From a virus (Duplodnaviria > Heunggongvirae > Uroviricota > Caudoviricetes): 57,747 bases of DNA. Under the pieces are notes generated by a model. That model worked only from the letters and a program-made list of their open reading frames with translations, ran no database searches and was not told the origin of the DNA. Where the stretch lies: the IMG/VR virus record IMGVR_UViG_2917393062_000003, positions 1-57,747 of that record, one strand, 5' to 3'. Both the position numbers and the translations under genes were made by a program. Below, piece by piece: positions 394-16,902 of the stretch. How positions within the stretch are numbered: position 1 is the stretch's first letter; each line of letters opens with the position of its first letter.

Positions 394-951
394 CTAAAGC
401 GACATTAACCTTTCCAACAGTTGCTCCTTACGGGCAACTATCCAGCCTTGCTGTTCCAGATAAAACTTAAAACGCTCCAGGGTACACACCATTGCGTCGG
501 CTGGGACTTTTTCCGTGAACTCAACCTGACCGTGGCTATTGAAATGGATCAGCAATGCGCATCCATCATTTTCGATGGGGGAGTTTTGCGCTGCTGGTGG
601 TTGTTTCTGACTGAAATAACAATCTTCCAGTTTTTCGAACACTTCCCACGCCTGATCGGTTTCGAGCATTTTGGCATGGCGGGCAGCGCCTCGTTCCGTC
701 CAGAGGATGAGGGAGCGGGTTTTGGGGGAAATTTGCAGGTAACTAAAAGTTACTCGCAAATTTTTCAGATCATCGCCAACGACTTTGAAATAATGCTTCC
801 CTTCCAGAAAACGAGTTTGATTACGTGAATGATTCATTTTTATGTTGGCAACATCCGTTCCATAAAGATGCGCCAATAGCTCGGTGGTTATGACAGGGAT
901 CTGGTTGTGGGTAATCGGGGAAAGAGTTTCAACTGCGATTTTGGTGGCCAT
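394..951 (-). CDS. ORF6N/KilA-C-like antirepressor-type protein (paralog of 13676-14221)
   Basis: 185 aa; motif LILWTERGAARHAKMLETDQAWEVFEKLED shared with the second copy at 13676-14221. Confidence 0.6.
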   Translation of the reverse strand: MATKIAVETLSPITHNQIPVITTELLAHLYGTDVANIKMNHSRNQTRFLEGKHYFKVVGDDLKNLRVTFSYLQISPKTRSLILWTERGAARHAKMLETDQAWEVFEKLEDCYFSQKQPPAAQNSPIENDGCALLIHFNSHGQVEFTEKVPADAMVCTLERFKFYLEQQGWIVARKEQLLERLMSL

Positions 952-1104
952 AAGATGATCCTTTTTCTTTGTGAATCATCACCACCTGCGACGCCAATCG
1001 CTTGGTGGTGAACTGTGCAGGGTTGGCGTAACCGGGAAAAAGGAACCGGCGCGGATTGCTCCGCCCCCACACAGCCCACCATTGAGATGTGACTGTGCAA
1101 ACGA

Positions 1105-1130
1105 CAATAAAAAAGACGCTGGCGCGTCTG
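1105..1130 (-). terminator. putative intrinsic terminator downstream of int
   Basis: minus-strand hairpin agacgc-gcca-gcgtct followed by T-run. Confidence 0.4.
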
Positions 1131-1215
1131 TTGTCGCCTTTTTCATCCGGGACGCCAATCCCGATACCAGATTTTGCTGGCATGTGCAGACTATAATCCC
1201 GGATGGTTATTTTTG

Positions 1216-2334
1216 TCAAACAACCAACTTAACCCATTCCTGACCTCGAGTATCGTTATAGCGATCGGTGGTTGCCTGGACTTTATGTCCCAGTAATGTT
1301 TTTGTATCGATACCCTGCGCACGGTACAGCCGTTCTGACAGGGAGCGTTGTTCATGAAATGTTGGTGGTGTTTTTCCTGCTGGTGGAGTTATTCCTGCCA
1401 GATCCCGCGCTTTAGCAAAGTAGTCGCTCAGGTTATCTTTACTCATTGGTTTTGGTTGTTTCTGGTGCCGGCTATGAATCAGGTATGGACTCAATATTCT
1501 GTCCCTGCATCCATCAATCACTTCTTTTAGCGATATCCCAATGGCATCACAGCGTAGCGTCAGCGGTAACGCCAGACGCATTCCAGTTTTTCCCTGGGTA
1601 ATATGCAGGTGTTCGTTCCACACATCTGAAAAACACATGTGGCAAATGTCATCACGGCGCTGACCAGTAACAATCGCAAGAAGCATTGCGTTACGGATAA
1701 AGTGTTTTTCAGGCGTTGCGTTGTAAATTTTTTGCCAGTCTTCCAGAGTGAGCCTGGCTCTGGTTACTTTAGGGATCGGTTTACGGGTAGCCTCCGGAGG
1801 ATTCCATCCGGGAGGGACTTCCCCTGCATGCTGTGCTTCTTTATAAATATCAACCCATAATCCGCGATTTACTCTCGCTGTGCTCACCATGTCTTTATCC
1901 AGCCACTCGTCCAGTATCAATGCAAAGTCTCTTACTTCCAGCTCTTTCAGTGGGTGGTTTCCCAGGCGGGAAACCAGGTATGCAGCCATTCGCGATTTTT
2001 CTTTGTGGGTTGTAGCTGCAATATCTCCATTTTTCAGTCGTGTGTCCTGTATTTTCAGATATCGATCAACCCATGCTTTTAATCTGATACCCCGACGTTT
2101 TGTTGCTGACGGACTTTCGTCAATTTTGCGCATGAAATATTCTGCTTCTGCTGCAGCTATTCGCTGATTGGCTGTGGAAGCGATTTTTTCCGCCTTGCCT
2201 TTGTCTGTTCCGAGCCCGTGAAATTTTCCAGTCACAGGGTTTTTATACTGGTAGTAAACCCTGCCAGTTCTGCGATCAAACTTTTCGTAAAGACCGGCAA
2301 CGTCAGTGCTGTTTTTTCGTGGCCTCGGTGACAT
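1216..2334 (-). CDS. int: tyrosine integrase, lambda Int family
   Basis: 372 aa; motifs LAIVTGQRRDDI, PPTFHEQRSLSERLY, GQEW matching lambda Int catalytic region. Confidence 0.9.
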   Translation of the reverse strand: MSPRPRKNSTDVAGLYEKFDRRTGRVYYQYKNPVTGKFHGLGTDKGKAEKIASTANQRIAAAEAEYFMRKIDESPSATKRRGIRLKAWVDRYLKIQDTRLKNGDIAATTHKEKSRMAAYLVSRLGNHPLKELEVRDFALILDEWLDKDMVSTARVNRGLWVDIYKEAQHAGEVPPGWNPPEATRKPIPKVTRARLTLEDWQKIYNATPEKHFIRNAMLLAIVTGQRRDDICHMCFSDVWNEHLHITQGKTGMRLALPLTLRCDAIGISLKEVIDGCRDRILSPYLIHSRHQKQPKPMSKDNLSDYFAKARDLAGITPPAGKTPPTFHEQRSLSERLYRAQGIDTKTLLGHKVQATTDRYNDTRGQEWVKLVV

Positions 2335-2572
2335 GAGTTAAAATCTCCTTCAGTGCATCATCATCGCCAGTATGAATTTCCGGCGCAATTCCCGTTTCAC
2401 CAGGTCCAACAAATACTGCCCGGCGATCTATCAGCCAACGTCCACGAATTTTTTGTGGTCTTGGTACGATATATCCAAGTTTTCCGTATTTCACCAGGGT
2501 AGTGTTTGTTATTGGGAGACTGAACCGTTTAGGTTTCCACTCGTCGAGCGTTATCAGGTACTGTTCGCTCAT
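2303..2572 (-). CDS. xis: excisionase-like protein
   Basis: about 89 aa directly upstream of int and overlapping it; ATG at 2572 with SD GGAGTG. Confidence 0.6.
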   Translation of the reverse strand: MSEQYLITLDEWKPKRFSLPITNTTLVKYGKLGYIVPRPQKIRGRWLIDRRAVFVGPGETGIAPEIHTGDDDALKEILTHVTEATKKQH

Positions 2573-2633
2573 GGTTATCACTCCGGAACGCGCCAGTTGC
2601 AGAATACCAACGACAACTGGCGACGGTTGAACA

Positions 2634-5114
2634 TTAAAAATCAGCCTGACTCGGGATCAGTTTTTGCCAGATTACTGAAACGTATTTCGCCTGGTGACGG
2701 GCATCATCCAGCGCATTGTGGCGCACGCCTTCAAATGGAATAACTGTTCTGGCATCGAAACCGATAGTTTTTCCCAGTTCAACGATTGTACGTACATCGC
2801 GATCGTTGTAGTAACGCCACGGGCAGGGGATGTTCAGGCGTTCGTACGAGGTTCGTAAAATAGTGTTGTCGAAAGTTGCACCATTGCCCCATACCTGAAC
2901 GAATTTTTCATCCGAGTACTCATTGATGAATTCCCGAAATTGAATAAGAGCGTCAACCAGTTTTACCTGATCAACTAAAATTGCAGATCTGGCTTCGCTG
3001 GACTGAGCAAGCCACCATTCGATGGTGGAACCATCAGGAACAGCCCCCGTGTCCATAGCGTCAACCAGGCTGATAACGATATAAAATGTTGGCCCGATTT
3101 CCCCGGTCTGCGGATCGAAGAACACAGCACCAATAACCACGATGGGGGCATTACTTTTTTTACCCATCGTTTCAAGGTCGATCATCAGGTGGTACCACAC
3201 TCTGCTGGTGGATGTGATAACGTGATGACCGTTCACCGCAATTAAGGGATCTGCTGTCTCGCCAGTTTCGCTATCGCTGGCGTGGTCCTGATAGCTGCCA
3301 GCATTCTCTTTGTGTGGATGTTCAGCGCCTTCCATTTCCTCCGGATCGTCTTCCTGAACTTCAACCTGATTCTCGTCATCGAATGTTTCCTGGTATGTTG
3401 CGTCGCCCATCACCGCGCCACAATCAGGGCAGTTGCCGCCACCGCTCTGGCCGCAGGCGGTGCAGACTTTTTCCGGCTTCTGTTGCGCTACTGGTTCAGG
3501 CTGTTTCGTTTCTGGCTCGTTTTGTTGCGCATTTGGGCTGTTTTGTTCCGCTTTCTGGTCGTTCTGTTCCGTTTCTTGCTGGTTCTGGTACACAGAATCG
3601 CGGGTCTGGATCCCATTAACCCATTTCGGATCATTCGGGTCGCTAATCCCTGCAACAAATTCACCACGTGATACTGCAAGCAGTTCATCGGCGTCAGGCT
3701 GGCTGATATTGGCTGCCTGCATAATTTTGTTTACTTCGTCAGCGGTAACTTTTACCGACTCTGGTTGTGCGATCGTGTCAGATGCACCAGTATTTTGTTG
3801 TGAACCTGAGTATGTACCGTTTTTGCGGGCAAAATATTCTTCTTTCGTGATTTCAGTAGCTCCCAAGGCCAGCGCTTTTTCCAGACCAGAAAGTTTGTTT
3901 GCGCGACCGTATTTTTCGCCGTCCTTATCGGTGAAAAGGAAGTAGAACGGCCCCTCACGCTCTACAGATGGTTCAGTTTCCAGCGTGCTTTCATTTTTTT
4001 GGGTATCAGATACTTCAGTTTCCACTGCATCAGTTTGTGCTGCTGACGGCTGGAGAATATCAGCAGTGTTCTGGTCTGTTTCTTCATCCTCAAACACGCC
4101 CTTTGTCGCCAGGTATTCAGTGATGTATTTGTTCAGTGCCACGGGATCTTTGTGAATGTCGAGCGGACGCTCACGGACAAGACCAAAAATAGTCTGACGG
4201 TTATAGCGAATGGCATCAGGCTGTTTGCGCATTGATGCGGAAATGCGCTTCCAGTCTTCGCGGTCTTTGGCGATAACTTCATTTTCTGCCCAGCGAAGGA
4301 TGTTACCGTCAATGCTTCCGGGGTCCGTATCACCAGGCCAGAGATAGCAGGCCAGCTCCCTGTCCAGCGCTTTCCATGTCTGCTTATATTCGCGACGAAT
4401 GGCATCAGTGGCAGGGTTGATTTTTTCTGCTGAATTTTCGGTGTTCTGTCGGTTGGTTCTGGCGCGGGCGAGATCAACAACAGACGTGTATTTCCCGGTT
4501 TCTTTGCGTTCGGCTTCGCGACGTTTTTTCCAGATGCGCATCTCCGCCTGAATTTCGGGCCATTTGGCACCTGGATTACATTTATGTTTAACCCACCCGA
4601 TGGCGAGCAGCTTAAGCTCTGAATACATGACGTTAACTTCAGGCATTTTCATCAGTGCCTCAACGATATGCCCGTCGAATGTTGCCATGTCCTCCTGCAA
4701 CAATTCCTGTGCACTAATCACCATATCAACGGTGATGTTTTCACATGTACCGAACTTAACCAGGACCGCGTTCTGTACTTCAAGGGACAGCTTGTCAAAA
4801 TTGACGTTCATCGGATCGGATTCTGGTTCGACCGGAATAAAGGAAGCGGATTCCTCATCCCAGCGGTTTTCCTGCATATATTCGGTATCCCAGGAGTCGA
4901 TAGCAGGGCGGGGCATGCCGGGTTTATCCTCGCAGACAAGAAATTTATAAGCGCAGTCCTGAGCAGCCGGATATTGCTCCAGGAATTGCCAGGTAAATTT
5001 GGCACGGGCGCGGCGTTCGTCACCGGCTTCAATGGCAGTGGCTACAGCAACTGCACCTTCTTCCTTTATTGCCTGTTCGTCCGGAATGGCGGCGCAAATA
5101 AAGACTTTACTCAT
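2634..5114 (-). CDS. RecE-like (exonuclease VIII family) protein with C-terminal DEDDh 3'-5' exonuclease domain
   Basis: 826 aa; central region LLAVSRGEFVAGISDPNDPKWVNGIQTRD...CTACGQSGGGNCPDCGAVMGDATYQETFD recalled from Rac RecE; C-terminus carries DEDDh motifs (MIDLETMG, WGNGATFDNTILR, HNALDDARH). Confidence 0.7.
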   Translation of the reverse strand: MSKVFICAAIPDEQAIKEEGAVAVATAIEAGDERRARAKFTWQFLEQYPAAQDCAYKFLVCEDKPGMPRPAIDSWDTEYMQENRWDEESASFIPVEPESDPMNVNFDKLSLEVQNAVLVKFGTCENITVDMVISAQELLQEDMATFDGHIVEALMKMPEVNVMYSELKLLAIGWVKHKCNPGAKWPEIQAEMRIWKKRREAERKETGKYTSVVDLARARTNRQNTENSAEKINPATDAIRREYKQTWKALDRELACYLWPGDTDPGSIDGNILRWAENEVIAKDREDWKRISASMRKQPDAIRYNRQTIFGLVRERPLDIHKDPVALNKYITEYLATKGVFEDEETDQNTADILQPSAAQTDAVETEVSDTQKNESTLETEPSVEREGPFYFLFTDKDGEKYGRANKLSGLEKALALGATEITKEEYFARKNGTYSGSQQNTGASDTIAQPESVKVTADEVNKIMQAANISQPDADELLAVSRGEFVAGISDPNDPKWVNGIQTRDSVYQNQQETEQNDQKAEQNSPNAQQNEPETKQPEPVAQQKPEKVCTACGQSGGGNCPDCGAVMGDATYQETFDDENQVEVQEDDPEEMEGAEHPHKENAGSYQDHASDSETGETADPLIAVNGHHVITSTSRVWYHLMIDLETMGKKSNAPIVVIGAVFFDPQTGEIGPTFYIVISLVDAMDTGAVPDGSTIEWWLAQSSEARSAILVDQVKLVDALIQFREFINEYSDEKFVQVWGNGATFDNTILRTSYERLNIPCPWRYYNDRDVRTIVELGKTIGFDARTVIPFEGVRHNALDDARHQAKYVSVIWQKLIPSQADF

Positions 5115-5194: not shown

Positions 5195-5395
5195 TTACGG
5201 CGCTGTTTTAAGTCCTGCCGGGATTTCGTTATTATCCAGGGGAATAACTTTATCGACCGGATAGCAGTTGCCGGGAATTTTCTGTTCTGCTGCGGCAGCC
5301 GTGCATTCTTTCATTGAACCATATATACCAGTAACCACATCAACCGGTTCGCCCGTATTAAGAAAAACAGTCAGGACGAGTGCAAATACTGTATT
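5195..5395 (-). CDS. small secreted/exported protein (signal peptide-like N-terminus)
   Basis: start MNTVFALVLTVFL with SD AAGGA 8 nt upstream; ATGA overlap with upstream ORF. Confidence 0.45.
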   Translation of the reverse strand, partial: NTVFALVLTVFLNTGEPVDVVTGIYGSMKECTAAAAEQKIPGNCYPVDKVIPLDNNEIPAGLKTAP

Positions 5396-5583
5396 CATTG
5401 CCAGCATCCTTTTTGTATCGGACGTAAACGTGCCAGCATTGAAAGAATGCAAATTTTATTTAATAACTCCCGTTCGTGTTTTCTCTTATTAATGGCATCT
5501 TCAGTAAATACAGGGTTACTGATTCTGACTCCAATTTCAAAACAACCTTCAGACGTATTAACGTTTGGTAATAACGTTTCCAT
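5395..5583 (-). CDS. hypothetical early-left protein
   Basis: 62 aa ORF, SD GAGGA before ATG, translationally coupled to downstream ORF. Confidence 0.4.
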   Translation of the reverse strand: METLLPNVNTSEGCFEIGVRISNPVFTEDAINKRKHERELLNKICILSMLARLRPIQKGCWQ

Positions 5584-6139
5584 TATCGCGTCCTCAACAA
5601 TGAATTTTGTGATGCGGTGCCTGGTGCCTCCAGGTGACGTTAACCAGTTAACAATTAACGCCGGAGTATTTCACGTTACGCCAGTAAAGGACCGCTTTAC
5701 TGTTTTAACTGTTCCGCGTGCGCTGAGCCGCATTCACCGCGCCACAAAATTCACTTTAAAAAGGGCGGACATCAGCCAGCAATGAAACTGATGCCGCCAA
5801 AAGGTAATCAACATGGGTTGTTGCAGCGGGGTTGTCACTCAGGCGTATGGTCAACCTGACAACCCGGCGTCCTCAACGGGGAAGGAATAACCCCGCCATA
5901 CATACCGCCGCGCCATTTCGCGGAGTGCCACAACCGGAAGCGCACAGACGAAGATGTCAGTGGTACACAACAAAGGGAGGAATGACTTCGCTGTGCGCTT
6001 TCGCGTTATGCCCTGACTTTTCAGGGATATATCCTTTCAGTAAACTGTCAGTGCCGGATGCTCACCCGTGTCCGGCGCACGCACTCCACCTGACCCGTGG
6101 AGAACTCCTTAATTACCAACCCTCAGGAGGGTGAAATTT

Positions 6140-6331
6140 ATGACACAAGAAGAAAAAGTAATGTTTCTTATGCGCCTGGCTGTGGAAACCTTTAACGCCC
6201 ATTGCCAGGTGTCCATTTCACCATCTCACGCCATTTCTCTTGCTACCGAGCAAATGGGGGAGATTGACGTCATTTACGATAAATTTGAAGCATTCCTGGA
6301 TAAGAAGCTTATGGCAGAGAAGCGTCAATAA
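6140..6331 (+). CDS. hypothetical small protein
   Basis: ATG at 6140 with strong SD AGGAGG 9 nt upstream; convergent with and overlapping 6309-6914. Confidence 0.45.
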   Translation: MTQEEKVMFLMRLAVETFNAHCQVSISPSHAISLATEQMGEIDVIYDKFEAFLDKKLMAEKRQ

Positions 6332-6914
6332 TTCTCATTACCCATCGTAAATATACCGGAGTGGGCTTGATGTTGTGTATTTCAAGCTCGCTCTTCATTA
6401 CTTCCAGCAGGTTTGAACTGATAATAAATAAATCAGATTCATCGTTATTATTTTTATCTGCATCCTCTTTTTTTGTTTTCAGCTCTTGCGGTGAATGTTC
6501 GAAAGAAACTTGCAGGGTATTATTTTTAGCATCCACAGAGCCTAAAGTATGTGCGTATGGATGTGCTATTGTGCGCCCTCGCAGATTTGCGTCATTTTCT
6601 AAATTCACTGAACAAAACAGGGCATCAACAAGGCTCTGTACAATGCAAAGGCAATCGAGGGCCGTCGCTGTTTCTGTTTTGATTGATGAAAGAACATGGC
6701 CATTCAGGCAAACAGAAATCACCCGTTCATTAACATCGCTTTCCCGCTTTTGATTATCAGAACCATATAGCCCGGTAAACGCATCGCGCACATTACGAAC
6801 CATATTATCGATGGTTTCTTTTTTTGCGGATTCCGGTTTAATTTCCACCAGGCTATCGCTAAGTGTCGTTGCAGCAATTGTCTGGATTTCTTTTGGTAAA
6901 TCTTTAAATTCCAT
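6309..6914 (-). CDS. hypothetical protein, AT-rich moron-like gene
   Basis: 201 aa; SD GAGG; 3' part encoded by markedly AT-rich DNA unlike neighbours. Confidence 0.5.
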   Translation of the reverse strand: MEFKDLPKEIQTIAATTLSDSLVEIKPESAKKETIDNMVRNVRDAFTGLYGSDNQKRESDVNERVISVCLNGHVLSSIKTETATALDCLCIVQSLVDALFCSVNLENDANLRGRTIAHPYAHTLGSVDAKNNTLQVSFEHSPQELKTKKEDADKNNNDESDLFIISSNLLEVMKSELEIHNIKPTPVYLRWVMRIIDASLP

Positions 6915-6936
6915 TATTAGCCTCGTTGGTCAGCTA

Positions 6937-7155
6937 TTAACGTGGGTATGTAATCATTCTGGCAATGCTTAATGCCGCTGCTTTTTCCAGCCTGGTGATA
7001 TCCTGCTCCAGAGCGGACAGATTTTCAGCTTGCTTAGCCCTGGCTTCATTGGCCCACTTCAGGTCCTGCGCTGCCGTAATTTTCTGGCGCATCCACTCAT
7101 AAAGTTCATCATCGGTATAGTCTGGCGCGATGATGACGGGTTCTCGTTTCTGCAT
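6937..7155 (-). CDS. hypothetical small coiled-coil protein
   Basis: 72 aa; SD GAGGAA 6 nt upstream. Confidence 0.45.
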   Translation of the reverse strand: MQKREPVIIAPDYTDDELYEWMRQKITAAQDLKWANEARAKQAENLSALEQDITRLEKAAALSIARMITYPR

Positions 7156-7184
7156 ACTGATTCCTCGCGGTGCTGTTTCGCTTA

Positions 7185-7313
7185 TCAGCCGTTAGATTTT
7201 GCCGAACTGGAAAGCGCCTGTTTAAACTCACTGAAGCTGAGAGCTTCTTCGCCTTCGGCAAGGCCTTCGAAGTATTCTTCGTAAGCCTTTTCCATGATTG
7301 CGTCGAAATCCAT
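7185..7313 (-). CDS. hypothetical small acidic protein (42 aa)
   Basis: manual translation MDFDAIMEKAYEEYFEGLAEGEEALSFSEFKQALSSSAKSNG; SD AGGTGA; not in ORF track because under 60 aa. Confidence 0.3.
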   Translation of the reverse strand: MDFDAIMEKAYEEYFEGLAEGEEALSFSEFKQALSSSAKSNG

Positions 7314-7314
7314 A

Positions 7315-7470
7315 TCACTCACCTGAATTTCTTTCCAGCCAGCGACGTGCGCCAGTTTCGGTTTTAAACGTTTTGCTTTTGGTATACGTCATCGCGGTGA
7401 ATGTGCCGTCCTGGTTGGGAAACACGCCGTATACCAGAGATTCGTTGTTACCAAGATCGATAGTATCCAT
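7315..7470 (-). CDS. hypothetical small protein (first gene of leftward early operon)
   Basis: start MDTIDLG with SD GAGG; the longer track ORF start at 7563 lies inside the predicted promoter. Confidence 0.4.
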   Translation of the reverse strand: MDTIDLGNNESLVYGVFPNQDGTFTAMTYTKSKTFKTETGARRWLERNSGE

Positions 7471-7547
7471 GTTGACCTCATTTCCCCTTAACGCCAGGGT
7501 GGCGGAACTGTTTGCTGAGAACACCGTGCGGTGTCTTGATGGAAGAT

Positions 7548-7599
7548 AATTTAGTTTTCTCATGGTAATAGGTCAAGTGTTTTTGATGAGAAAACTCAA
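7548..7599 (-). promoter_or_regulatory. leftward early promoter (PL-like) with operator palindromes
   Basis: minus-strand -35 TTGACC (7571-7576), 17-nt spacer, -10 TAAATT (7548-7553); operator ATGAGAAAACTCAA at 7586-7599 and a related copy at 7550-7563. Confidence 0.45.
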
Positions 7600-7663
7600 T
7601 GTTTAATGCAAAACAAAGCCAATACATTGAAATGTAAGGCTTTAAAATTTGTGAAGGAGTGGG

Positions 7664-8071
7664 TTATTGATGTTTGTTACGTTTGCGAGCTTCTAGTAGC
7701 TCGGTAAATAGGCGATTAAAATTCTCAACACGGGCACGGAGTTCGCTGATTTGTGCTTGCTGCTCTGATTTTGGAAGTGCGCGATACAATCGCAACATCT
7801 CCAACTCATCTTCCGATAAGTCTAAGGAGCTGTTGAGTGCAACTGGGGGCTCTGGTGTTTTATCCTCGTCACCAAACAGTATCCAGGTTGGTGAACATTG
7901 CAATACCTCAGCCAGGCGATGCAAATTTTGCCCGCGCGGGGCTGTATGGTCGCTTTCCCATAGTGAAATTGATGAGCCAGATACGCCAGCAGCCTTGCTT
8001 AAATCGTTTTGACTTAAACCAACCTGTTTGCGTCTTTCTCTAATTCGTTGACCTAAAGTTTTCTCGTTCAT
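7664..8071 (-). CDS. DicA/RacR-like HTH_XRE prophage repressor
   Basis: 135 aa; N-terminal HTH; LQCSPTWILFGDEDK motif recalled from DicA. Confidence 0.75.
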   Translation of the reverse strand: MNEKTLGQRIRERRKQVGLSQNDLSKAAGVSGSSISLWESDHTAPRGQNLHRLAEVLQCSPTWILFGDEDKTPEPPVALNSSLDLSEDELEMLRLYRALPKSEQQAQISELRARVENFNRLFTELLEARKRNKHQ

Positions 8072-8092
8072 ATTTAGATATCTTAATAACCC

Positions 8093-8136
8093 TTGACTTG
8101 AGATTCCTTGAGTGATTACTATTGAGAAAACTCAAC
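8093..8136 (+). promoter_or_regulatory. rightward early promoter (PR-like) with operator palindrome
   Basis: -35 TTGACT (8093-8098), 17-nt spacer, -10 TTACTA; 14-bp palindrome TTGAGAAAACTCAA at 8123-8136. Confidence 0.5.
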
Positions 8137-8148
8137 TTTGGAGGGGCG

Positions 8149-8376
8149 ATGTTTAAATCGGACGTAATTAATTTTTATGGGACGAAAGCCAAAGTAGCGA
8201 AAGCTGCTGGTGTTGATCCATCTGCTGTTTCTCAATGGGGGGAACTGGTTCCTGAAGGCCGCGCGATGCGCCTGCAAGAGGCATCCGGCGGGGAACTTCA
8301 GTACGACCCCAAAGTTTATGACGAATATCGTAAGGCAAAGCGGGCGGGGCGGTTGAACAATGAAAATCACCCCTGA
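8149..8376 (+). CDS. DicC/YdaS-like Cro-type regulator
   Basis: divergent from repressor; ATG at 8149 with SD GGAGGGG; motif GRAMRLQEASGGELQYDP. Confidence 0.6.
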   Translation: MFKSDVINFYGTKAKVAKAAGVDPSAVSQWGELVPEGRAMRLQEASGGELQYDPKVYDEYRKAKRAGRLNNENHP

Positions 8377-8911
8377 ACAGGTTTGTGAAGCTCTGGATGC
8401 CTGGGTATGCCGACCAGGAATGACACAGGAGCAGGCGACGATATTAATCACAGAAGCCTTCTGGGCACTGAAAGAACGCCCGAACATCGATGTTCAACGT
8501 GTCACGTTTGATGATGGCGCGGTTGATCAACGGGCGCTTGGTGTTAACCGGGTGAAGATATTCGAACGCTGGAAAGCTATCGACACCAGGGATAAGCGTG
8601 AAAAATTCACGGCGCTGATTCCGGCAATTATGGAGGCTATCCGGATAAGTGATTTCTGGTTGTATCGTGAAATTACTGACGGAAAAAGCATTACGTACAT
8701 GATCGCCGGGTTAAACAAAGAATATGGCGATGTGGTTGAGTCCGGTCTGCTTTTGGCAGATCCCGCTGTTGTGGAACGTGAGACTGACGAGCTTATAGAA
8801 AAAGCTATTGCTTTCAAGCATGCGTATCGTCAGCAATACCAACATTACTTTGCAGATAAACAAATGTCTGCCTGGGGTTCGTATGAGTATCGATGCACTA
8901 CGATGGGCTAA
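8360..8911 (+). CDS. hypothetical protein at the YdaT position of Rac-like early regions
   Basis: 183 aa; call is by gene order only (repressor, Cro-like, this ORF, O-like). Confidence 0.4.
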   Translation: MKITPEQVCEALDAWVCRPGMTQEQATILITEAFWALKERPNIDVQRVTFDDGAVDQRALGVNRVKIFERWKAIDTRDKREKFTALIPAIMEAIRISDFWLYREITDGKSITYMIAGLNKEYGDVVESGLLLADPAVVERETDELIEKAIAFKHAYRQQYQHYFADKQMSAWGSYEYRCTTMG

Positions 8912-10407: not shown

Positions 10408-10803
10408 ATGGCGAAACCTTTTACACCCGAACAACGGGAGGAGCTGAAGACTCGAATCATCGTTCTGGTGCGCAAAAATGGACGCATGACGATGTCGCAA
10501 CTGGAGAGAGCGACGGGAGCTGGCTGGCATTCGGTCCGACGCTGCCTTGTGGATGTACTGGTTTGTGGTGATTTATACATGTCCGGGGAATACGGTGTTT
10601 TTGCATCAGAGCAGGCGTATCGCGAATGGCGTAAGACACCGGAGAAAACAACTGACCAGACACTGATTCGAAAGTTACCAGACGGAGAAATACGCCGCTA
10701 CGACAGACATCTGAACATAATCTGTCGCGAGTGCCGGAAGAGCGAAGCTATGCAGCGTGTGCTGGCGTTCTATCAGGGTAATTTTCAGGAGATGATGTTG
10801 TGA
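10408..10803 (+). CDS. hypothetical protein
   Basis: ATG at 10408 with SD AGGAGG. Confidence 0.45.
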   Translation: MAKPFTPEQREELKTRIIVLVRKNGRMTMSQLERATGAGWHSVRRCLVDVLVCGDLYMSGEYGVFASEQAYREWRKTPEKTTDQTLIRKLPDGEIRRYDRHLNIICRECRKSEAMQRVLAFYQGNFQEMML

Positions 10804-11288
10804 GTGAGTCGGCTACCATTCTCGACATGTGCTGTGGCAGTCGCATGTTCTGGTTTGATAAGAATGACGAACGGGCGATATTTAGCGATATCAGAAAAGA
10901 AGAGCACACATTGTGTGATGGACGACGGCTGATAATTAGCCCTGACCTGATAGCAGATTTTCGAGCATTACCATTTGCAGACGCATCGTTTCCGGTTGTT
11001 GTATTCGACCCTCCGCATCTTGAGCGTATTGGTGATAAAGCCTGGATGGGAAAGAAATATGGACGGCTGAATAAAGATACCTGGCGTGATGATTTGCGGC
11101 GGGGATTTAAAGAAGCCTTTCGTGTGTTGTGGCCACATGGCGTTCTGATTTTTAAATGGAATGAAACGCAAATATCTGTCCGCCAGATATTGGCACTAAC
11201 CGACGCGAAACCAATCATCAGCCAGCGCACCGGTAAGAACGATAAAACACATTGGATTATTTTTGTGAAGGAGGCGACCAGTGGGTAA
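10800..11288 (+). CDS. putative DNA methyltransferase (N6-adenine type)
   Basis: 162 aa; LDMCCGSR (SAM-binding-like) and VVFDPPH (DPPY-like) motifs; GTG start overlapping upstream stop. Confidence 0.55.
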   Translation: MSESATILDMCCGSRMFWFDKNDERAIFSDIRKEEHTLCDGRRLIISPDLIADFRALPFADASFPVVVFDPPHLERIGDKAWMGKKYGRLNKDTWRDDLRRGFKEAFRVLWPHGVLIFKWNETQISVRQILALTDAKPIISQRTGKNDKTHWIIFVKEATSG

Positions 11289-13401: not shown

Positions 13402-13488
13402 CGTAATTACTAGTCCGGGGCTATATTTTCGACGCGCCAGCAAAATCTGGCGTCGGGATTGAGACCCCGGATGTTTACGGAGCGATAT

Positions 13489-13512
13489 GAGACGCGCCCG
13501 CGTCTTTTTTTT
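13489..13512 (+). terminator. rho-independent terminator ending the rightward early operon
   Basis: gagacgc-gccc-gcgtc followed by 8 T. Confidence 0.6.
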
Positions 13513-13675
13513 CATATCGTTTGCACAGTCATATTCGCGATTTATGGCGGGCTGTGTGGGGGAGCCGAAAGGCTCGCCGGTTTCCGTACCCGGTAGTCTC
13601 AACCCTGCACAGGTCGCCACCAGATGATTGAGACCAGAAGGTGGCGATAATGTCCAAATGTACGGAGTTATCGTT

Positions 13676-14221
13676 ATGACCACTCAAATTTCTGTCGAAA
13701 CTCTTTCCCCGATTACACACAACCAAATTCCCGTTATCACCACCGAGTTGCTGGCACAACTTTACGGCACGGATTCAGATAACATCAAAAAGAATTATTC
13801 GCGTAACGCAGATCGCTTTTGTGAAGGTAAGCACTTTTACAAAGTGATTGGTGATGAACTAAAGAATTTGCGGGTGACTTTAAGTCACTCACAAAATCCC
13901 ATCTCCCCAAAAACCCGCTCGCTCATACTCTGGACAGAACGCGGAGCAGCCCGCCACGCCAAAATGCTCGAAACCGATCAGGCGTGGGAAGTATTCGAAA
14001 AACTCGAAGACAGTTACTTCAACCAGTACGAGAAAGAGCGGGCTATGGGCAAAATGAATATCGATTTTCACCTGGCGATCCGTGACGATAAAACTGCTTT
14101 CATCCGAAGTTATGCGCCAGGTCAGCTGGTGACGGTTGAAGAAGCACTGACCTTGCTTAAATCGCGCGGTTGGCTGGTAATGCCGCGCGATGAACTGGCC
14201 GGAAAATTAATGGAGCTTTAA
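13676..14221 (+). CDS. ORF6N/KilA-C-like antirepressor-type protein
   Basis: start MTTQISVETLSPITHNQIPVITTELLA; about 90 percent nt identity to parts of 394-951 by eye. Confidence 0.6.
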   Translation: MTTQISVETLSPITHNQIPVITTELLAQLYGTDSDNIKKNYSRNADRFCEGKHFYKVIGDELKNLRVTLSHSQNPISPKTRSLILWTERGAARHAKMLETDQAWEVFEKLEDSYFNQYEKERAMGKMNIDFHLAIRDDKTAFIRSYAPGQLVTVEEALTLLKSRGWLVMPRDELAGKLMEL

Positions 14222-15540: not shown

Positions 15541-16530
15541 GTGAGAGCATTACTGACACCTGAAATTGCCCCGCGTATGGGGATCGTACTGTTCAGGCCA
15601 GGTTCAGAGCTGATGCCCTTGTTTATGCAGGGGCGTGTCTTGCTGGAGCCTGAGCCGGAACGTTATTCATCTTTTGCCAGTGGTGTCGTTCCAGCGGCAT
15701 TACAACCGTTAGCGGATGATCCCGCTGTTCGGGCCGTATTCCGTAATGAGGCTGTGATCCATCGTGCTGGTGGAGTGGGATGTCTTGAAAGCTGGTTACT
15801 TCGTGAAAAAGGTTGTCAGTGGCCTCATTCCGACTGGCACAGCGAGAACATGACCACAATGCGTCACGTGCCGGGAGCAATCCGTTTGTGCTGGCACTGC
15901 GATAATCAGCTGCGCGATCAGTTCACAGAACGGTTGGAATCAATGGCAACGGATAACTGTGTTCGTTGGGTGTTGTCTGTTGTCCGTCGGGATCTCGGTT
16001 TTGATGAAAGTCACGTTGTGACAATGCCGGAACTGTGCTGGTGGCTGGTTCGTAATGACCTGGCGGATGCCTTACCTGAAAGCGCAGCCCGTAAGGCTCT
16101 GAGATTACCGAAGCCTGCTGTGCAGTCTGTCACTCGGGAAAGTGACCTCGTACCTTCAGTTCCGGCCACCAGCATCATCCAGGATAAAGCGAAAAAGGTG
16201 CTGGCGCTGAAAGTGGATCCGGAATCGCCGGAGTCTTTTATGTTACGCCCCAAACGTCGCCGCTGGGTTAACGAAAAGTACACGCGCTGGGTTAAGACAC
16301 AGCCGTGTGCATGTTGTGGTAAGCCAGCCGACGATCCCCATCACCTGATTGGTCACGGTCAGGGAGGGATGGGGACAAAAGCCCACGATATTTTCACGCT
16401 ACCGCTGTGCCGGGAGCATCACAATGAACTTCATGCTGATCCGCTGGCATTTGAAGAAAAGCATGGTTCCCAGATTGATTTAATTTTTCGTTTTCTTGAT
16501 CACGCCTTTGCAACCGGCGTGCTTGGGTAA
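15541..16530 (+). CDS. nin-region protein with C-terminal DUF968-like Cys/His motif
   Basis: 329 aa; C-terminal CACCGKPADDPHHLIGHGQGG...CREHHNELH; GTG start with SD GGAGGT. Confidence 0.55.
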   Translation: MRALLTPEIAPRMGIVLFRPGSELMPLFMQGRVLLEPEPERYSSFASGVVPAALQPLADDPAVRAVFRNEAVIHRAGGVGCLESWLLREKGCQWPHSDWHSENMTTMRHVPGAIRLCWHCDNQLRDQFTERLESMATDNCVRWVLSVVRRDLGFDESHVVTMPELCWWLVRNDLADALPESAARKALRLPKPAVQSVTRESDLVPSVPATSIIQDKAKKVLALKVDPESPESFMLRPKRRRWVNEKYTRWVKTQPCACCGKPADDPHHLIGHGQGGMGTKAHDIFTLPLCREHHNELHADPLAFEEKHGSQIDLIFRFLDHAFATGVLG

Positions 16531-16542
16531 AAGAGGTTACTG

Positions 16543-16902
16543 ATGCGTATAGAGCTTGTTTTGCCTTACCCGCCGACGGTGAACACCTACTGGCGACGTC
16601 GTGGCAGCACATATTTTGTATCAAAAGCCGGTGAGCGTTATCGTCGGGATGTGGCGCTCATTGTTCGCCAGCAGCGACTGAAATTAAACCTGTCCGGAAG
16701 GCTGGCAATAAAAATTATTGCAGAGCCACCGGATAAGCGCCGCCGAGACCTGGACAATATCCTGAAAGCTCCACTGGATGCGCTGACGCATGCGGGACTA
16801 CTCATAGACGACGAGCAGTTTGATGAAATCAATATTGTGCGTGGTCAGCTCGTTCCTGGTGGGCGGCTGGGGATAAAAATCACAGAGCTGGAGTGCGCAT
16901 GA
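16543..16902 (+). CDS. rusA: Holliday junction resolvase RusA
   Basis: 119 aa; DKRRRDLDNILKAPLDALTHAG matches RusA catalytic region. Confidence 0.85.
   Translation: MRIELVLPYPPTVNTYWRRRGSTYFVSKAGERYRRDVALIVRQQRLKLNLSGRLAIKIIAEPPDKRRRDLDNILKAPLDALTHAGLLIDDEQFDEINIVRGQLVPGGRLGIKITELECA

Follow-up and report, generated by a model that had tools for sequence, protein, structure and literature searches.

The DNA considered here, called the window, is the whole 57,747-nucleotide stretch of IMG/VR virus record IMGVR_UViG_2917393062_000003, and all positions are counted within it. On its minus strand, an open reading frame (ORF) at 2634..5114 encodes an 826-residue protein with an ATG start, exactly at the coordinates given in a preliminary description of this DNA. 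The gene is a full-length, intact ydfE, the last gene before xis and int in the dicBF-type early-left operon of a Qin/mEp460-type lambdoid prophage. Its product is a mosaic RecE paralogue, in which a RecE-like body carries a DEDDh 3'-5' exonuclease head, and is predicted to act without RecT.

The ydfE gene and the architecture of its product

The assignment to ydfE follows from precomputed Pfam names together with collinearity with Escherichia coli K-12. The exact protein is present in an NCBI assembly, where its precomputed Pfam annotation consists of YdfE_N (PF27430), YdfE_C (PF27432), and the Rv2179c-like domain; it also matches PHROG 2082 ("exonuclease", 823 positions) from end to end. The gene and the parts of its product are as follows.

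2634..5114, minus strand: intact YdfE-family coding sequence, 826 residues, RecE-like body plus DEDDh exonuclease head (ORF, PHROG, Pfam)
4437..5114, minus strand: residues 1-226, an alpha/beta block (about 1-100) and a helical block (105-226), the portion left in K-12 ydfE
4095..4382, minus strand: residues 245-340, a helical block homologous to the RecE N-terminal region (NCBIfam exoVIII, hhalign, AlphaFold2 predicted local distance difference test (pLDDT) >90)
3819..3953, minus strand: residues 388-432, a small beta-beta-alpha domain common to most family classes (AlphaFold2, phmmer)
3243..3800, minus strand: residues 439-624, the central module, rich in Q/N and D/E, with the GISDPNDPKWV motif (BLASTP, composition)
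3420..3464, minus strand: residues 551-565, CTACGQSGGGNCPDC, a four-cysteine putative zinc knuckle (read from the sequence)
2667..3191, minus strand: residues 642-816, Rv2179c-like/DexA-like DEDDh 3'-5' exonuclease domain (Pfam, T4 DexA 8kel)

By sequence, the head at the C-terminus belongs to the DEDDh exonucleases and not to the RecE-type nucleases. For PF16473 (Rv2179c-like 3'-5' exoribonuclease domain), the alignment runs from residue 642 to residue 816 and takes in profile positions 2-177 of 177, at E 6e-69 and 231.7 bits, where the cut-off is 27. This is the sole domain above threshold in the Pfam-A release scanned, PF27430 and PF27432 being newer than that release. The full DEDDh set (D646, E648, D749, H799, and D804) aligns with D7, E9, D119, H186, and D191 of T4 DexA, and the catalytic residues are kept in 125-127 of 127 homologues. 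When PDB sequences were searched with phmmer, the sole relatives retrieved were 8kel and 8ken, a 227-residue "exodeoxyribonuclease" (E 1e-9); the 227-residue length, the positions of S87 and D90, and comparison with the T4 gene identified 8kel as T4 DexA. The structure of Rv2179c was not retrieved by phmmer against the PDB.

A RecE-type PD-(D/E)XK domain was not found in the window protein, in which both PF06630 and PF12684 were unmatched by Pfam, and a jackhmmer search with the RecE nuclease as query did not retrieve its C-terminus. The same Pfam test applied to Rac-SA53 RecE returned PF06630 at the N-terminus and the PDDEXK-like PF12684 at the C-terminus, with a PF03837 RecT as the neighboring gene. 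The preliminary description had read DEDDh motifs in place of the RecE nuclease fold; the whole-profile PF16473 match and the five catalytic residues bear this out, and the domain search that it proposed for telling the two apart matched a DnaQ/DEDDh-type domain and no RecE-type nuclease.

The remainder of the protein is RecE-like. BLASTP aligned residues 439-624 with residues 431-614 of Rac-SA53 RecE at 62% identity (E 1e-68), over a stretch that includes both GISDPNDPKWV and CxxC...CPDCG (C551, C554, C562, and C565); the resemblance to Rac RecE noted from these two motifs in the preliminary description is thus confirmed. A second, faint BLASTP match to RecE covers residues 279-335. The NCBIfam model for exodeoxyribonuclease VIII (NF007259) matches only residues 241-626, at model positions 264-603 of 877 (E 1.6e-80), and its score of 271.3 bits lies below the curated cut-off of 1269, so that the threshold for a RecE equivalog is missed. 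Alignment by hhalign of the family profile, which includes some RecE-like rows, with RecE 1-430 gave a probability of 99.8% over 289 columns, corresponding to residues 52-342. By these alignments, the approximately 620 N-terminal residues are homologous to the non-catalytic body of RecE, remotely so at the N-terminus and at 62% identity in the central linker. A 2023 review still counted the function of this body, which spans about 600 residues in RecE, as unknown (PMC11611040).

The window protein and Rac RecE (NF007259) therefore share a homologous non-catalytic body as well as a place in the early-left operon beside xis and int; they differ in that the former has no PD-(D/E)XK 5'-3' nuclease, no PF06630, and no adjacent recT. 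AlphaFold2 modeling of residues 1-440 with 48 homologues reached a mean pLDDT of 85.6 and resolved four folded blocks: an alpha/beta block from residue 1 to about 100, helical blocks at 105-226 and 245-340, and the beta-beta-alpha domain at 388-432.

Operon, prophage, and distribution of the family

The genes surrounding ydfE are listed below in order of position.

1216..2334, minus strand: lambda-type integrase (Pfam Arm-DNA-bind_1 and Phage_integrase)
2303..2581, minus strand: excisionase (xis), directly downstream of ydfE (Pfam Exc)
5195..5452, minus strand: YdfD-like gene (DUF1482), directly upstream of ydfE, start probably at 5398 (Pfam DUF1482; 67-residue gene call in the related locus L005)
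5395..5583, minus strand: DicB cell-division inhibitor (Pfam DicB, E 1e-36)
5763..5813, minus strand: divergent DicF-like small RNA (sRNA) with a terminator-like hairpin at 5795-5768 (Rfam, sub-threshold)
6937..7563, minus strand: ydfC-, ydfB-, and ydfA-like genes (6937-7155, 7185-7322, and 7315-7563), the operon start (identity to K-12)
7664..8071, minus strand: DicA/CI-type repressor (Pfam HTH_3, Phage_CI_repr)

In K-12, the Qin prophage has the order dicA-ydfA-ydfB-ydfC-dicF-dicB-ydfD-ydfE-[IS2E]-intQ'. Identity of the window proteins to those of K-12 is 56% for DicA, 98% for YdfA, 98% for YdfB, 97% for YdfC, 87% for DicB, and 68% for YdfD, the Qin lysis protein. For YdfE it is 87% over residues 1-255, up to the point at which the K-12 frame enters IS2. 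The two prophages thus hold the same gene in the same place of the same operon; however, K-12 ydfE (b1577, annotated as a pseudogene overlapping IS2E) is cut by IS2E after approximately residue 256, whereas the window copy keeps the RecE-like linker and the exonuclease domain. No promoter-like site was found directly upstream of ydfE in the window.

At the Rfam gathering threshold there was no match to DicF; the sub-threshold match extends over the full model length at 34.1 bits, against a gathering score of 48 (E 4.8e-5). Beside the DicF-like sRNA, and overlapping the start of dicB, lies a sub-threshold match to STnc100 at 5551-5765 (minus strand). K-12 Qin lacks a 201-residue ORF that in the window is inserted at 6309-6914 (minus strand), between DicF and the ydfC-like gene. 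Its product matches PHROG 1363, of unknown function, and neither Pfam nor PADLOC returned a match for it.

No partner of the RecT type is encoded nearby. Upstream of ydfE lie DUF1482, DicB, three small ORFs, the 201-residue ORF, and the CI/DicA-type repressor, and the right arm carries genes for Cro, a YdaT-like protein, a DnaT-like protein, a lambda-P-like replication protein, a methyltransferase, DUF968, RusA, and Q. When every six-frame ORF of at least 60 residues in the window was compared by phmmer with Rac RecT, lambda Red-beta, P22 Erf, lambda Exo, Gam, and Abc2, there were zero matches, and hence no RecT, Red-beta, or Erf. Scans with Pfam and PHROG found no single-strand annealing protein (SSAP) among 25 early-region proteins, and none was present in approximately 19 related loci. 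The order ...dicB-DUF1482-YdfE-xis-int, without an SSAP, recurred in every context examined, namely mEp460, E. coli BCE049, the whole annotated genome of phage Tritos, loci from E. ruysiae and E. albertii, and ten further E. coli assemblies whose neighboring genes were annotated with Pfam; a single-protein scan of species-representative genomes yielded 8 loci.

These results agree with the preliminary description, according to which the gene abuts xis without a recT-type neighbor, and the survey of neighbors that it suggested found no recT in the operon, in the rest of the window, or in the related loci. With no SSAP partner and a DEDDh head, the protein cannot be a RecET-type machine for 5'-3' resection and annealing. 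To this extent the earlier claim of a "different function" stands; the novelty that it implied does not, as the gene belongs to the catalogued ydfE family.

Among the genes of the right arm, those for the methyltransferase, the DUF968 protein with a weak HNH-type (HNHc_6) match, and the RusA resolvase lie at 10800-11288, 15541-16530, and 16543-16902, all on the plus strand. The prophage thus has junction-processing enzymes but no annealase.

The window is also rich in Chi. It contains 26 copies of GCTGGTGG, against 2.2 expected from shuffled sequences, none of 100 shuffles reaching 26. The sites range over 593-53674 and are split 21:5 between the strands, with 21 on the plus strand. One of them lies inside ydfE, at 3204-3211. 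Phage Tritos has 11 Chi sites where 1.6 are expected, whereas P22 (41.7 kb), which possesses its own erf/abc module, has 0. Lambdoid phages without a Rec module have been described as Chi-enriched and reliant on host RecBCD (Genome Res 2025; PMC12315714), and on sequence grounds the prophage fits this "no Rec module - high Chi" class in its lack of an SSAP, its Chi enrichment, and its strand bias. The same study described lambdoid phages with genes for DnaQ-like 3'-5' nucleases, some of which stand outside the canonical Rec modules and close to int, as well as "RecE-2" proteins, which are RecE relatives without the nuclease domain (PMC12315714). The window accordingly fits three of its descriptions (a DnaQ-type gene near int, the RecE-2 relatives, and the no-Rec/high-Chi class), although the proteins themselves were not analyzed in detail there.

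The family is already known, being represented by the Pfam entries YdfE_N, YdfE_C, and Rv2179c-like, by PHROG 2082, and by NCBI product names. It is also common: in a megablast search, at least 80% of the gene was covered in 3535 of 5426 complete E. coli genomes (best identity 94.5%), with a median of two matching places per genome with any match, partial matches counted. A protein search returned 7746 matches and was saturated with E. coli proteins 90-93% identical to the window protein; NCBI names such relatives "exonuclease" or "3'-5' exoribonuclease (domain-containing protein)". The gene is also found in the complete phages mEp460, Evi, Tritos, HannyBb, PhiR42_1, and the PPompW series, in whose records it is labeled "exonuclease", "exodeoxyribonuclease VIII", or similar. 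What had been presented as unusual is therefore a catalogued family in its normal, undamaged state. About two thirds of complete E. coli genomes carry it, and for this family the recT-less arrangement is the rule. The family ranks among the commonest of E. coli prophage genes, with the K-12 copy broken, and the label "exodeoxyribonuclease VIII" carried by many phage records is misleading, both in the polarity that it implies and in its suggestion of a recombination partner, which is not present.

Interchangeable C-terminal heads on the RecE-like body

Residues 1-440 served as the query in an exhaustive HMMER search of 1.84 billion cluster representatives, which returned only 178 clusters. When the long ones were sorted by C-terminus, five classes emerged on one N-terminal body.

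Class A: 18 clusters, no recognizable C-terminal domain
Class B: 13 clusters, no recognizable C-terminal domain
Class C: 7 clusters (plus Rac-SA53 RecE), RecE-type PD-(D/E)XK nuclease
Class D: 6 clusters (plus the window protein), DEDDh exonuclease
Class E: 5 clusters, divergent PDDEXK nuclease

The segment at residues 376-438, which contains the small beta-beta-alpha domain, has phmmer matches in classes A, B, C, and D. A natural control is provided by locus L011 (7980-12010). Over residues 1-500, its protein and that of the window share 86% identity. Directly after GISDPNDPKW, the L011 protein switches to the RecE nuclease, and the next gene is recT (E 8.5e-123); the four-cysteine motif, which is kept in Rac-SA53 RecE, is absent from this variant. 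In Rac-SA53, too, recT stands beside recE. On the shared body, the RecE nuclease travels with recT and the DEDDh head travels alone. L011 thereby supports the logic that ties the RecE nuclease head, and not the DEDDh head, to recT. Converse mosaics also exist: L010 and P0143 combine an N-terminus of the RecE type (PF06630) with a DEDDh head.

All parts of the protein are under purifying selection. Against six fully alignable homologues, the ratio of nonsynonymous to synonymous substitution rates (dN/dS) was 0.13-0.58 in all four segments; it was at most 0.44 wherever dS was at least 0.13, the value of 0.58 coming from one near-identical exonuclease segment with a dS of 0.03. The segments differ in their synonymous divergence, as judged by comparing the window with L001, L007, L008, and L015. 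Against the mEp460-type copies, dS in the exonuclease segment (2634-3242) is about 0.9 and 0.14-0.48 elsewhere, a difference of two to six times, whereas against the BCE049-type copy dS in this segment is 0.03. This contrast reveals mosaic alleles joined by recombination, at least two alleles of the exonuclease domain having been shuffled onto the same body.

Class A was located at 31 IMG/VR loci (L028-L058), where the gene lies at approximately 6001-8400 of each locus. A Sipho_Gp157 homologue comes next in all 31, and a lambda Gam homologue lies directly upstream in four; no RecT, Red-beta, Erf, or exonuclease was found within 6 kb. This context indicates that the RecE/YdfE body also occupies a canonical Rec-module slot. 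The class A head comprises about 280 residues with the motif KKSLTDAIKKALSxLGFSADVxLGLYD, and its AlphaFold2 model consists of a helix, long beta-hairpins, and a helix. It has no Pfam or PDB sequence match, and Foldseek returned nothing significant. Identification of the head as a Rad52/Red-beta-type annealase, proposed from this motif, was not confirmed by Foldseek or by hhalign, which gave no significant alignment with single Erf, Red-beta, and RecT sequences. From its context (Gam, Gp157, and no other SSAP), the head could nonetheless be an annealase. In class B (P0125, P0216, and others), the same body ends in a conserved terminal motif, LTYxQQLTIAALQGLCANP; these proteins may be among the "RecE-2" proteins mentioned above (PMC12315714).

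Proposed function and alternative explanations

Judged from sequence and analogy, the most likely activity of the ydfE product is that of a RecT-independent, 3'-end-trimming DNA exonuclease, and we place the probability of this reading, in which intact ydfE is a mosaic RecE paralogue acting through its DEDDh head, at about 0.6. The enzyme is predicted to be Mg2+-dependent and to remove nucleotides from free 3'-OH ends, and it would be expressed only once the early-left operon is derepressed. By analogy with T4 DexA, its most likely substrate is DNA with single-stranded or frayed ends. The RecE-like body might bring the putative exonuclease to this substrate or oligomerize it. A DEDDh-headed protein would not generate 3' tails for annealing; acting without RecT, it would more probably serve phage DNA metabolism as a trimmer of 3' ends or flaps, or as a DNA scavenger. 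Candidate roles are the trimming of 3' flaps or tails in RecBCD/RecA-dependent phage recombination, DNA scavenging, and exclusion.

The choice of DNA as substrate is based on the nearest characterized relative, DexA, and on the DNA-recombination enzymes to which the body is otherwise joined. Both its annotation and a 2025 paper in Nucleic Acids Research (PMC12153337) describe DexA as a 3'-5' DNA exonuclease. It belongs to the same PF16473 DEDDh family, is about 35% identical to the window protein over the domain, and has all five catalytic residues in alignment. Unlike the window protein, DexA is a stand-alone enzyme of 227 residues with extra loops, and its W152 and D169 are not conserved: the position of W152 is Y769 in the window protein and, among 127 homologues, Y in 111, H in 14, and W in 2.

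Several points weigh against this reading. A position beside int is typical of accessory genes. Both PF16473 and the NCBI product carry the name "exoribonuclease", so that an RNA substrate is possible. A search for PDB fold relatives of the N-terminal 440 residues found none, which makes the targeting role of the body a guess, and a literature search on YdfE found no functional study. Moreover, 3'-5' DNA exonucleases usually inhibit homologous recombination (PMC12315714); a positive role in phage recombination is thus not the default expectation. Finally, a stand-alone E. coli homologue of DexA, EcD, has been reported in anti-phage defense (PMC12153337).

The last point raises an alternative in which the protein is a prophage-encoded defense or superinfection-exclusion nuclease, similar to EcD ("HREX"), that degrades modified (5-hydroxymethylcytosine, 5hmC) or foreign phage DNA from 3' ends. 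EcD, like the window protein, is a DEDDh exonuclease of the DexA family carried by E. coli genomes, and it is reported to protect against T4 by digesting 5hmC DNA (PMC12153337); furthermore, DicB, encoded in the same operon as ydfE, is reported to protect against phage infection (PMC6832061). The window protein nevertheless departs from this model at the level of single residues. Those with which DexA recognizes 5hmC, kept in EcD, are lost, W152 being replaced by Y769 and D169 lying in a DexA-only insert, while the DexA tetramer residue D90, an Ala in EcD, is kept as D721. EcD is also a stand-alone protein that begins with MIDTET at the exonuclease domain (its start being read from cloning primers), as opposed to an 826-residue RecE-like fusion. 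A search of PADLOC-DB 2.0 found no family at E <=0.01, the gene stands last in an early-left operon under repressor control, with no separate promoter-like site found for it, and it is retained in lytically competent phages. Defense is hence not the best-supported reading and seems unlikely.

Somewhat less probable again is an Rv2179c-like 3'-5' exonuclease acting on RNA, with the dicBF transcript, the DicF precursor, or host RNAs as substrates. Its appeal lies in the name exoribonuclease borne by the Pfam family and the NCBI product and in the DicF-like sRNA encoded in the same operon. Rv2179c of Mycobacterium tuberculosis, the founder of PF16473, shares the family and the DEDDh chemistry with the window protein; however, it is a single-domain exoribonuclease too distant to be retrieved from the PDB by phmmer, whereas the sole solved relative by sequence is the DNA exonuclease DexA. 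The same body is elsewhere fused to DNA enzymes (the RecE nuclease, with recT) and also occurs in Rec-module slots beside Gam and Gp157. A literature search on Rv2179c in connection with phage found no functional study.

We consider it doubtful, more so than an RNA substrate, that the protein is a true functional substitute for RecE working with a host or unrecognized annealing protein. The RecE-like body and the seat in the early-left operon of a lambdoid phage would suit such a role, as would RusA and the DUF968 protein (weak HNHc_6) elsewhere in the prophage, which would resolve or cut DNA. Yet the predicted polarity is wrong for 3' tails, no SSAP was found in the window, in Tritos, or in the approximately 19 loci, and a Chi-rich genome is typical of phages without a Rec system of their own. 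As for a functionless, decaying remnant of a RecE gene wrecked by recombination, the truncated K-12 pseudogene and a fragmented copy in Shigella (L012) speak for it, but conservation effectively refutes it: thousands of genomes, and viable phages as well, carry the gene intact, dN/dS is well under 1 in every segment, and the active site is kept in nearly all homologues, as described above.

A broader proposal, tentative and on balance improbable, although less so than defense, is that the RecE/YdfE body is a general adaptor of lambdoid recombination modules with interchangeable heads, the DEDDh version of which, as present in Chi-rich phages that lack a Rec module, is a dedicated partner or tuner of the host's RecBCD-Chi-RecA pathway. 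The heads may then comprise the RecE nuclease (with recT), the DEDDh domain, a possible annealase-like domain (with Gam and Gp157), and others with no recognizable nuclease. By trimming 3' flaps or tails, the DEDDh head might, for example, let invading ends prime recombination-dependent replication. If this adaptor proposal were true, ydfE would provide a case of a 3'-5' exonuclease that promotes, instead of inhibiting, phage recombination, as well as a first handle on the long-unexplained N-terminus of RecE. The natural head-swaps on the RecE body offer a way to find its role.

Beyond the ydfE operon, the window contains two pairs of isrK sRNA and C4 antisense RNA, matched by Rfam above the gathering score, at 1001-1183 (minus strand) and 13434-13624 (plus strand). 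Each pair lies directly upstream of an ORF6N antirepressor-type gene, at 394-951 (minus strand) and 13628-14221 (plus strand), respectively. Both resemble c4-ant immunity units in the style of P1/P7, which would give this lambdoid prophage two; one lies beyond int, at the prophage edge.

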